A program made the translations under genes and the position numbers. The notes below the pieces were generated by a model. The model made no database searches. It saw nothing but the letters and a program-made list of their open reading frames with translations, and was not told the origin of the DNA. Positions 593 through 714 of a DNA stretch of 8,789 nucleotides are shown piece by piece; position 1 is the first letter of the stretch; the number at the start of each line of letters is the position of its first letter. Source of the DNA: a virus (lineage: Duplodnaviria; Heunggongvirae; Uroviricota; Caudoviricetes); IMG/VR virus record IMGVR_UViG_2778261667_000002, positions 1-8,789 of that record. One strand, written 5' to 3'.

Positions 593-671
593 CAAGAAAG
601 AAGCCGACTGGCGATTCCTTTCTGCGGGTCTTCGAAAGCGAATCCAGCTCAGGCAGTCGGCTTCTTTCTTG
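593..671 (+). repeat. 18-bp perfect inverted repeat with two nested inner stems (79-nt compound hairpin)
   Basis: 593-610 (CAAGAAAGAAGCCGACTG) is the exact reverse complement of 654-671. Inner stems 613-617/640-644 (GATTC/GAATC) and 618-622/634-638 (CTTTC/GAAAG). Verified base by base. Confidence 0.5.
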
Positions 672-690
672 TGTGAGATGTAGCGTATTT

Positions 691-714
691 GCCCATCTTA
701 GGGTGGGCTTTTTT
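691..714 (+). terminator. Candidate intrinsic terminator (GC stem followed by T6)
   Basis: GCCCA (691-695) pairs with TGGGC (704-708), followed by TTTTTT (709-714). Lies 20 nt downstream of the 593-671 hairpin. Confidence 0.4.

Follow-up and report, generated by a model that had tools for sequence, protein, structure and literature searches.

What is the role of a long, perfectly paired hairpin that stands just in front of an intrinsic terminator in the non-coding leader of a phage operon? This question is raised by a stretch of tailed-phage DNA of 8,789 nt (IMG/VR record IMGVR_UViG_2778261667_000002, positions 1 to 8,789), referred to here as the window, in which a long inverted repeat is followed by a short hairpin and a run of T. 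In a preliminary description the two had been treated as one compound element of a phage late leader, which could be the end of a short terminated transcript, an RNase III site or a DNA site for a late regulator. We found that they belong to two separable modules of what appears to be an early operon, and that they stand directly before an unannotated RNA gene that looks like tmRNA.

Over 99% of its length the window shares 89.9% identity with phage D6, a plasmid prophage of the P1 family, and about 100 D6-like E. coli plasmids have the region at 90-92% identity. According to the D6 annotation, pmgS lies just before the start of the window, and positions 1-1175 form an unannotated, non-coding leader; the first annotated genes past it are tRNA-Asn (1175-1250, + strand) and, directly after, tRNA-Thr (1253-1328, + strand), followed by tRNA-Ser, tciA, tciB, tRNA-Met, two ORFs, lpa (4459-4851), pacA, pacB and c1. 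The ban operon of P1 is ordered as Pban with operator Op72, a 102-bp 'dicF-like region', trnA, trnT, tciABC, trnI and ban. At 79-101 (+ strand) we found the motif AAATTAAAGTGTTAGAAAATTAC, which overlaps an extended -10-like TGTTAGAAA and probably lies in the region where the leader starts. Its core TGTTAGAAAA has about 17 copies in the D6 genome and also occurs upstream of lpa in the window; the D6 copies lie upstream of the equivalents of c1, lpa, repL, ref, cre, pmgR/S and pmgT, which are the positions of C1 operators in P1. The P1-type C1-operator consensus itself was absent from the window. We read the motif at 79-101 as a D6-type C1 operator, and by this reading the leader promoter would be early and repressor-controlled; since a simple sigma-70 scan of the window found no promoter at the operator, it is from the operator that we infer the promoter. 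The operon as a whole appears to be the counterpart of the P1 ban operon, early and C1-repressed, and its leader would for that reason not be a late leader.

The late leader of the preliminary description, with a late-promoter or antiterminator gene to be sought upstream of position 1, is therefore at variance with the locus: pmgS and the C1-type operator were found upstream, tRNAs and tciAB downstream, and the layout matches that of the C1-controlled P1 ban operon. Late genes of P1-family phages are switched on by the activator Lpa and not by an antiterminator, so that the analogy with PR', 6S RNA and Q of lambda does not apply and a Q/qut late-promoter system is not expected here. The lambda terminator tR' behind 6S RNA likewise has a GC-rich stem, a short loop and U6, a regulated promoter not far in front and genes behind that are reached by read-through; however, the lambda late system works through Q and qut, of which the window has none, its own promoter is predicted to be early and repressor-controlled, and it is stable-RNA genes, rather than lysis or structural genes, that lie behind the terminator. 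A lambda-type late leader RNA (PR'-qut-6S-tR') was rejected on these grounds, the phage encoding Lpa. A sequence resembling the late-promoter -22 box, TAGTCACTT, is present at 40-48 (the P1 boxes are AAGTTACTT and ATGTGACTT); the places where it occurs in D6 do not coincide with the late operons, and for this reason we claim no late promoter.

Chance is a poor explanation for the hairpin at 593-671 (+ strand). Its arms, 593-610 and 654-671, are 18 nt long, 100% complementary and separated by 43 nt, and we calculate that 8.8 kb of sequence would by chance hold about 1e-5 perfect 18-bp inverted repeats with both arms within 100 nt. For the RNA fold of 593-671 the energy is -39.8 kcal/mol with z = -5.1; among 200 dinucleotide shuffles there was not one fold as stable. 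Folding recovered the outer 18-bp stem together with two stacked inner stems, GAUUC/GAAUC (613-617/640-644) and CUUUC/GAAAG (618-622/634-638), so the earlier view of an 18-bp perfect repeat that encloses two 5-bp stems and is very unlikely to arise by chance was confirmed both by the repeat search and by the fold prediction that had been suggested as a check. Continuing across a small internal loop or bulge, the inner stems add 10 more pairs to the outer 18 bp, which in the predicted fold amounts to roughly two helical turns of RNA duplex with few interruptions, as in an RNase III site. The known RNase III stems (T7 R1.1-type, lambda N-leader, sib) resemble this hairpin by architecture only, with 18 bp plus stacked 10 bp in the window and unrelated sequence; the hairpin likewise stands in what would be an early polycistronic RNA, between functional units. 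Rfam searches of the window and its sub-regions (gathering thresholds and E<=10) returned for 1-1174 chance-level matches of miRNA-type families and STnc240 on the long stem, with E from 0.03 to 0.7; the sole suggestive matches were those to the tmRNA models, below threshold, described further on. The overlapping ORFs, 568-753 (+) and 528-728 (-), have no PHROG or Pfam match, and a sister lineage has insertions of 107-109 nt that disrupt the frame; on these two grounds they are non-coding, as they had been judged to be.

The hairpin was kept in every D6-like relative when homologous phages were compared, a check that had also been proposed, and it is confined to D6-like elements. In an alignment of the 12 distinct variants, 17 pairs of the outer stem occur in 11, and the 18th pair (G610-C654) is peculiar to the window. 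Of the cells in this alignment 92.8% are paired; sliding the 3' partners by 1-3 columns lowers the value to 37-53%. Compensatory exchanges were observed in the outer stem of a sister lineage that we call type B (A-U to U-A and G-C to A-U), the window belonging to type A, and in the inner stem (U-A to C-G, with a C.A intermediate in D6). Because these amount to about three independent events, all among close relatives, the support for structural selection is real but modest, and it suggests that structure rather than sequence has been selected in the hairpin.

A feature of the DNA rather than of RNA, such as a cruciform, a protein-binding palindrome, a single-strand initiation signal or a miniature inverted-repeat element, seems to us very improbable. 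It would agree with a perfect 18-bp repeat that folds equally well on either strand, and with the inverted loop of the neighbouring long hairpin (293-391) in one relative, which shows DNA recombination between the arms; but the 43-bp spacer contains conserved, covarying nested stems, the position is in the predicted leader transcript beside a strand-specific terminator, and the D6 genome has a single copy, always at this locus and without target-site duplication. Arms of 18 bp that are 43 bp apart would make an unlikely protein operator, and a miniature inverted-repeat mobile element was rejected, with one copy per genome at a fixed locus and flanks (GCAT/TGTG) that are not duplicated. Probably the hairpin is a leader stem selected for its structure, which would serve as a processing or stability element.

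Such a stem would not stand by itself. Positions 105-592 (+ strand) form a structured, apparently untranslated leader specific to D6-like elements, with long imperfect hairpins at 150-195, 226-311, 293-391, 432-464 and others, and the fold of 100-720 has z = -7.85. Among 18 distinct relatives, variation is mostly in the loops, and stems change in a compensatory manner, for example CAACGTTAAGGAG/CTCCTTAACGTTG versus CAACATTAAGGAG/CTCCTTAATGTTG. The leader belongs to no Rfam family and has no match outside D6-like elements. Folding and alignment are consistent with one large structured RNA, of which the hairpin at 593-671 would be one domain among many.

The second structure, at 691-714 (+ strand), is an intrinsic (Rho-independent) terminator, GCCCAUC-UUAG-GGUGGGC followed by U6. 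The terminator scan gave a stem at 691-708 with 7 pairs (5 G-C), a 4-nt loop and TTTTTT at 709-714, where a stem of at least 5 bp, a loop of 3-8 nt and at least 5 U directly after define an intrinsic terminator; its energy is -12.7 kcal/mol (z = -3.2). A terminator-like hairpin with T6 had been noted here before and is indeed present, with a stem of 7 rather than 5 pairs and a gap of 19 rather than 20 nt from the first hairpin; the gap is a single-stranded spacer, UGUGAGAUGUAGCGUAUUU, at 672-690 (+ strand). The T-run is confined to the + strand, on which all genes downstream also lie, and the wobble pair U696.G703 of type A is C-G in type B; this exchange and the one-strand T-run indicate a helix formed in RNA of the + strand. 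A short terminated transcript, as proposed before, is plausible in the form of a terminated leader, given RNA-level structure on the + strand, a canonical terminator and non-coding DNA. The terminator is conserved in P1, P7, SJ46, RCS47 and others, as well as in 588 plasmid records. No promoter-like site lies in the 2-nt gap between the terminator and the next gene, and the genes behind it, which begin 2 nt from a strong terminator, can be expressed only by read-through or antitermination. A local antiterminator alternating with the terminator was considered and rejected, the pairing AGAUG/CAUCU being weak (5-6 bp) and not conserved in P1.

The two structures have different histories. Homology to P1/P7, SJ46, RCS47 and about 590 plasmids starts exactly at window position 688 (P1 68855), the foot of the terminator, and the terminator is the left edge of the block common to P1/P7 and these plasmids; the stretch 60-690 has no match beyond D6-like elements. 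P1 has the terminator module without the 18-bp hairpin. In type B (e.g. CP042620) the order is hairpin, a 108-nt P1/Qin-type structured element and terminator, which places the hairpin 128 nt from the terminator. From the type B arrangement we assign the hairpin to the D6 leader and the terminator to the downstream block. The single compound element of the preliminary description was thus not upheld, since the P1/P7 homology begins at the terminator, the hairpin is found in D6-like elements only and type B inserts 108 nt between them. As P1 and type B demonstrate, the terminator module needs neither the hairpin nor its close spacing, and type A, to which the window belongs, seems from the alignment to have arisen from type B by a deletion with the junction GTAGCG^ / ^ATTTGCCC.

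The comparison with P1 also bears on the 'dicF-like' label. P1 and the window share the operon position, the gene order, the terminator sequence and a C1 operator, but P1 has only about 100 nt from promoter to element, neither the 18-bp hairpin nor a 500-nt structured leader, and dmt rather than pmgS upstream. The P1 'dicF-like region' (68791-68892) is followed by trnA, and the terminator is its 3' end; the remainder aligns to the spacer upstream of dicF in Qin. The structured element that P1 and type B share with the Qin ydfC-dicF spacer is missing from the window, and type B has it in addition to the hairpin. A 13-nt identity with Qin, CCCCGCTGCAACG, is found at window 461-473, and an STnc100-like element precedes dicB in Qin and tciA in the window. 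DicF itself (RF00039) was rejected: it gave no match in the window even at E<=10 (threshold 48 bits), and the Qin dicF control scored 76.7 bits. We therefore correct the label, as the P1 stretch aligns upstream of dicF and its conserved part is the terminator.

DicF is made by processing, and a trans-acting sRNA in an analogous position, an RNA of about 55-120 nt processed from the stem and regulating host mRNAs, is one further way to read the locus. Proposed features of such an RNA are a U/C-rich seed, an AU-rich Hfq site (AUUU), the U6 tail and the terminator end. The 3' module, with its single-stranded AU-rich stretch, terminator and U6, does resemble Hfq-dependent sRNAs, the corresponding P1 stretch is annotated 'dicF-like', and DicF comes next after the related element of Qin. 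We consider this quite unlikely nonetheless: the DicF model that detects the Qin control finds nothing here, the P1 stretch does not align to DicF, and the would-be seed differs from lineage to lineage such that the stem, and not a target-pairing sequence, is kept.

Our preferred reading, which we hold tentatively and with somewhat less than even confidence, is that 691-714 acts as an attenuator or insulator and 593-671 as a processing or stability stem in the leader of a C1-repressed, D6-like early operon, laid out as operator/promoter, leader, terminator, tmRNA-like RNA, tRNAs, tciAB and further genes. Transcription would start at the operator-controlled promoter and run into the leader, and the terminator would stop most transcripts, giving a leader RNA of about 600 nt in the window and of some 170 nt in P1. 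In this manner the terminator would keep leaky transcription in the lysogen out of the stable-RNA and tci genes behind it, which after induction or derepression would be reached by read-through. The hairpin would be the last structural domain of the D6 leader and mark its boundary; its stem would suit cleavage by RNase III, and by locking up upstream sequence it may leave the terminator free to fold. Promoter use, the efficiency of termination, read-through and RNase III cleavage are the predicted steps of this scheme. A literature search, to whose scope the P1 and D6 genome papers did not belong, found no paper on this region or mapping its transcripts. In themselves the hairpin and the terminator are of known kind, a leader hairpin and an intrinsic terminator, and fairly ordinary. 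What they add is a covariation-supported attenuator/leader structure in the 'ban-type' early operon of P1-family phage-plasmids, elements that commonly carry resistance genes in E. coli and Salmonella.

If downstream genes need read-through of a strong terminator, the leader and hairpin might themselves be a cis-acting RNA for processive antitermination (put-like or nut/boxA-like) that carries polymerase past 691-714. In other phages the same tmRNA-like block is directly preceded, where P1 and D6 have the terminator, by a boxA-like UGCUCUUU, in some cases together with a tetraloop hairpin, and boxA-like sequences occur downstream in the window at 1426 and 1967. However, there is no boxA upstream of the terminator here, the hairpin is conserved in its pairing alone, and P1 passes the same terminator without it; an HK022 put antiterminator was rejected as well, neither the window nor the P1/Qin-type element having a significant sequence match to the HK022 early region. 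Antitermination by the leader is for us a highly doubtful proposition.

The hairpin might also be a terminator in its own right. With an A-tract AAGAAAGAA, a GC-rich stem GCCGACUG/CAGUCGGC and a U-rich tract UUCUUUCUUGUGUG, its layout would fit a second terminator too, and one could suppose tandem terminators, in which the hairpin ends a D6-specific ncRNA of about 570 nt and 691-714 is the back-up. The hairpin is the exact right end of the D6-specific module, and in type B the tract after the stem is more U-rich (GGCUUUUAUGUUG), with the A-tract co-changing. The loop is nevertheless 43 nt long and branched, compared with a typical 3-8 nt (this loop is why the terminator scan skipped the hairpin), the U-tract is interrupted by C and wholly paired with the A-tract, and a one-directional terminator is not expected to select for complementarity between A-tract and U-tract. 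We regard tandem terminators as rather unlikely.

The most interesting feature here is the neighbour whose start coincides with the terminator. At 716-~1161 (+ strand) lies an unannotated RNA gene that looks like tmRNA, with a conserved 5' block GUUUUCG (718-724), a tag frame at 774-809, a stop-codon helix and a hairpin or pseudoknot. The tag frame reads GCA AAC GAT GAT CTG ATG ATG GCA GCG GCC TAA TAA, that is ANDDLMMAAA and two stops, and other phages have ANDDVVLMAA with two stops (Bp4) and ANDNEFKVAA with one (phiEa2809), each after the conserved UAAAUGCAAACGA. A short frame after UAAAUGCAAACGA is, at the level of sequence, the signature of a tmRNA tag template; it has the alanine resume codon and the hydrophobic end with AA and stop that mark such tags, and it can be aligned to the part of E. 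coli ssrA that holds the tag. RNAalifold on nine diverse copies predicted the stop-codon helix (GC:5, AU:4) and a next hairpin with G-C/A-U covariation, whose loop pairs downstream by eye (GUCG/CGAC versus CCGA/UCGG); this downstream pairing would make a pseudoknot. The likeness to tmRNA (SsrA) therefore comprises the resume context, a 10-codon tag ending in AA and stop, the stop helix, a pseudoknot-like hairpin and nearby tRNAs, whereas the window RNA has no recognisable tRNA-like domain, CCA, G3.U70 or PK1. No T-arm with CCA other than those of normal tRNAs was found within -900 to +1300. The Rfam tmRNA models matched the tag region only and below their gathering scores (RF04321, 20.8 bits, and RF00023, 10 bits, threshold 47 for each), and ARAGORN called no tmRNA for the enterobacterial-phage type, to which the window and P1 belong. 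As a side observation, a minus-strand ORF at 764-1066 overlaps the RNA element and matches phrog_27020, of unknown function; a protein-coding role was rejected, the alignment to distant phages having indels that are not multiples of three.

The 5' block at 718-724 has two possible partners. One is 1155-1161, just before tRNA-Asn, which would give a candidate closing helix with U.G at 3:70 and no CCA. The other, in D6-like elements, is 498-506 (+ strand), GAUGAAAAC, whose partner at 718-726, GUUUUCGUC, would close a long-range helix around both the hairpin and the terminator. This helix was predicted by RNAalifold from 15 type A sequences; all 9 pairs are present in 18 of 18 sequences, with A-U/G.U exchanges at 502 and 503 and no double compensations, and it has no counterpart in P1. 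We regard the enclosing helix as a lead only. Were it to form, the two hairpins might be part of a precursor of the tmRNA-like RNA, 507-717 being an inserted domain, comparable to that of circularly permuted (two-piece) tmRNA genes, that is removed or used in maturation. The strand-specific character of the A-U/G.U exchanges would agree with such a precursor; in addition, the tag motif occurs in more than 120 viral contigs, 74 of which have a permuted tmRNA by ARAGORN with the acceptor piece upstream of the coding piece, and the Rfam permuted-tmRNA model has its best, sub-threshold match at 702-807. Against this, no T-arm, acceptor 3' strand or CCA was found upstream, the block has the alternative partner described above, the helix shows no double compensatory changes among its exchanges, and P1 has the tmRNA-like RNA and the terminator without the helix partner. 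A precursor of this type we judge unlikely.

Apart from the details of maturation, the terminator may be among the expression and maturation signals of an unannotated class of phage tmRNA-like RNAs, and so may the hairpin of D6-like elements by way of the 498-506/718-726 helix; we put this forward as a possibility well short of probable. If this were true, the leader terminator would gate production of the tmRNA-like RNA after prophage induction, and if the RNA is functional, the phages that have it would hijack trans-translation or reprogram it, for instance with an altered degradation tag or in concert with a separate acceptor RNA. In any case a conserved stable-RNA module without annotation begins at the terminator; it has a tmRNA-like tag and lies beside phage tRNAs, and manipulation of ribosome rescue by temperate and lytic enterobacterial phages becomes a testable question. 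The tmRNA-like RNA is common to the P1/D6 phage-plasmids, of which E. coli and Salmonella have hundreds, Gamaleyavirus and Ackermannviridae: window 717-900 matches about 260 phage records at about 70% identity, among them the N4-like Gamaleyavirus Bp4 and the Ackermannviridae member phiEa2809, and the match is always to non-coding DNA beside tRNA genes.

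Immediately 3' of the predicted intrinsic terminator (window 691-714, plus strand) lies an unannotated tmRNA-like RNA (window 716-1161, tag frame 774-809), and copies of it were located in P1 (NC_005856, about 68885-69340), in the N4-like phage Bp4 (L048, 2495-2680) and in the Ackermannviridae phage phiEa2809 (L049, 2502-2690). Its resume context, UAAAUGCAAACGA, is conserved, the tag in the window reads ANDDLMMAAA followed by two stop codons, the stop codons are covered by a covarying helix, and a pseudoknot-like hairpin is also present. The search for a tRNA-like domain, CCA and G3.U70 was negative, and the RNA was called by none of ARAGORN, Rfam and PGAP. 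It is common to P1/D6 phage-plasmids, N4-like phages and Ackermannviridae, and tRNA genes adjoin it in every case. A minus-strand ORF of 100 aa (window 764-1066), which matches phrog_27020 (unknown function, E 6e-48), overlaps this conserved RNA, and the alignment with distant phages contains indels whose lengths are not divisible by three; phrog_27020 is probably a collection of ORF calls made on an RNA gene.

Two plus-strand boxA-like sequences, TGCTCTTT (window 1426-1433) and TGCTCTTA (window 1967-1974), lie between the genes of the tRNA region, in non-coding DNA. Other phages with the tmRNA-like block (L156, L159, L097 and L112) carry UGCUCUUU immediately 5' of the tmRNA-like RNA, in some cases accompanied by a tetraloop hairpin. 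These observations suggest that such untranslated units are subject to rrn/nut-type antitermination. The same region holds, after tRNA-Thr, a tRNA-like remnant (window 1338-1412) with a perfect T-arm, AGGGTTCGAATCCCT, inside the long stem GGTAAGGGTA/TACCCTTACC; this remnant was detected neither by ARAGORN nor by the Rfam tRNA model. ARAGORN called tRNA-Ser(UGA) at window 1783-1869, for which the top Rfam score was tRNA-Sec at a sub-threshold 42.1 bits (threshold 47), and for which the D6 annotators likewise obtained no assignment from tRNAscan.

Upstream of the terminator, a non-coding leader of about 500 nt (window 100-592) is confined to D6-like elements and matches no Rfam family. It is extremely strongly folded (z -7.85 for window 100-720), and several of its long hairpins show compensatory changes. 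The 293-391 hairpin has its loop flipped between the 38-nt arms in one relative, L027. Directly after the GGGGGAGGCACCCCC hairpin, window 461-473 is identical over 13 nt (CCCCGCTGCAACG) to the Qin prophage just 5' of dicF (L008, 855-867), and GCTGCAA within it (465-471) could pair without mismatch with TTGCAGC (1103-1109). The leader hairpin at 450-464, GGGGG-AGGCA-CCCCC, is similar to CCGGG-AGGCA-CCCGG within a near-threshold STnc100-like element (window 1979-2107; Rfam STnc100, 41.3 bits, threshold 47) located 5' of tciA (2145); the same element also lies ahead of dicB in Qin (34.4 bits).

The "dicF-like" label in the P1 annotation is a misnomer. The region so named (L002, 3880-4000) contains a structured, roughly 100-nt element, absent from Rfam, which is shared with Qin, where it is positioned 5' of DicF (L008, 760-850), and with type B, the sister lineage of D6-like elements (L006, 1880-1985). 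Its hairpins CCGCG/CGCGG and CUGGG/CCCAG show covariation, a pseudoknot GCAUGG/CCAUGC is possible, and in all three contexts the element immediately precedes a terminator requiring read-through.

The P1 C1 operator consensus was sought in the window and was absent. A predicted D6-type C1 operator motif, with core TGTTAGAAAA and a fuller form of approximately TTTGTGTTAGAAAAnTAAT, occurs at window 79-101 (plus strand) and about 4362-4384 (minus strand), and approximately 17 copies are found in the D6 genome at places equivalent to the P1 C1 operators.
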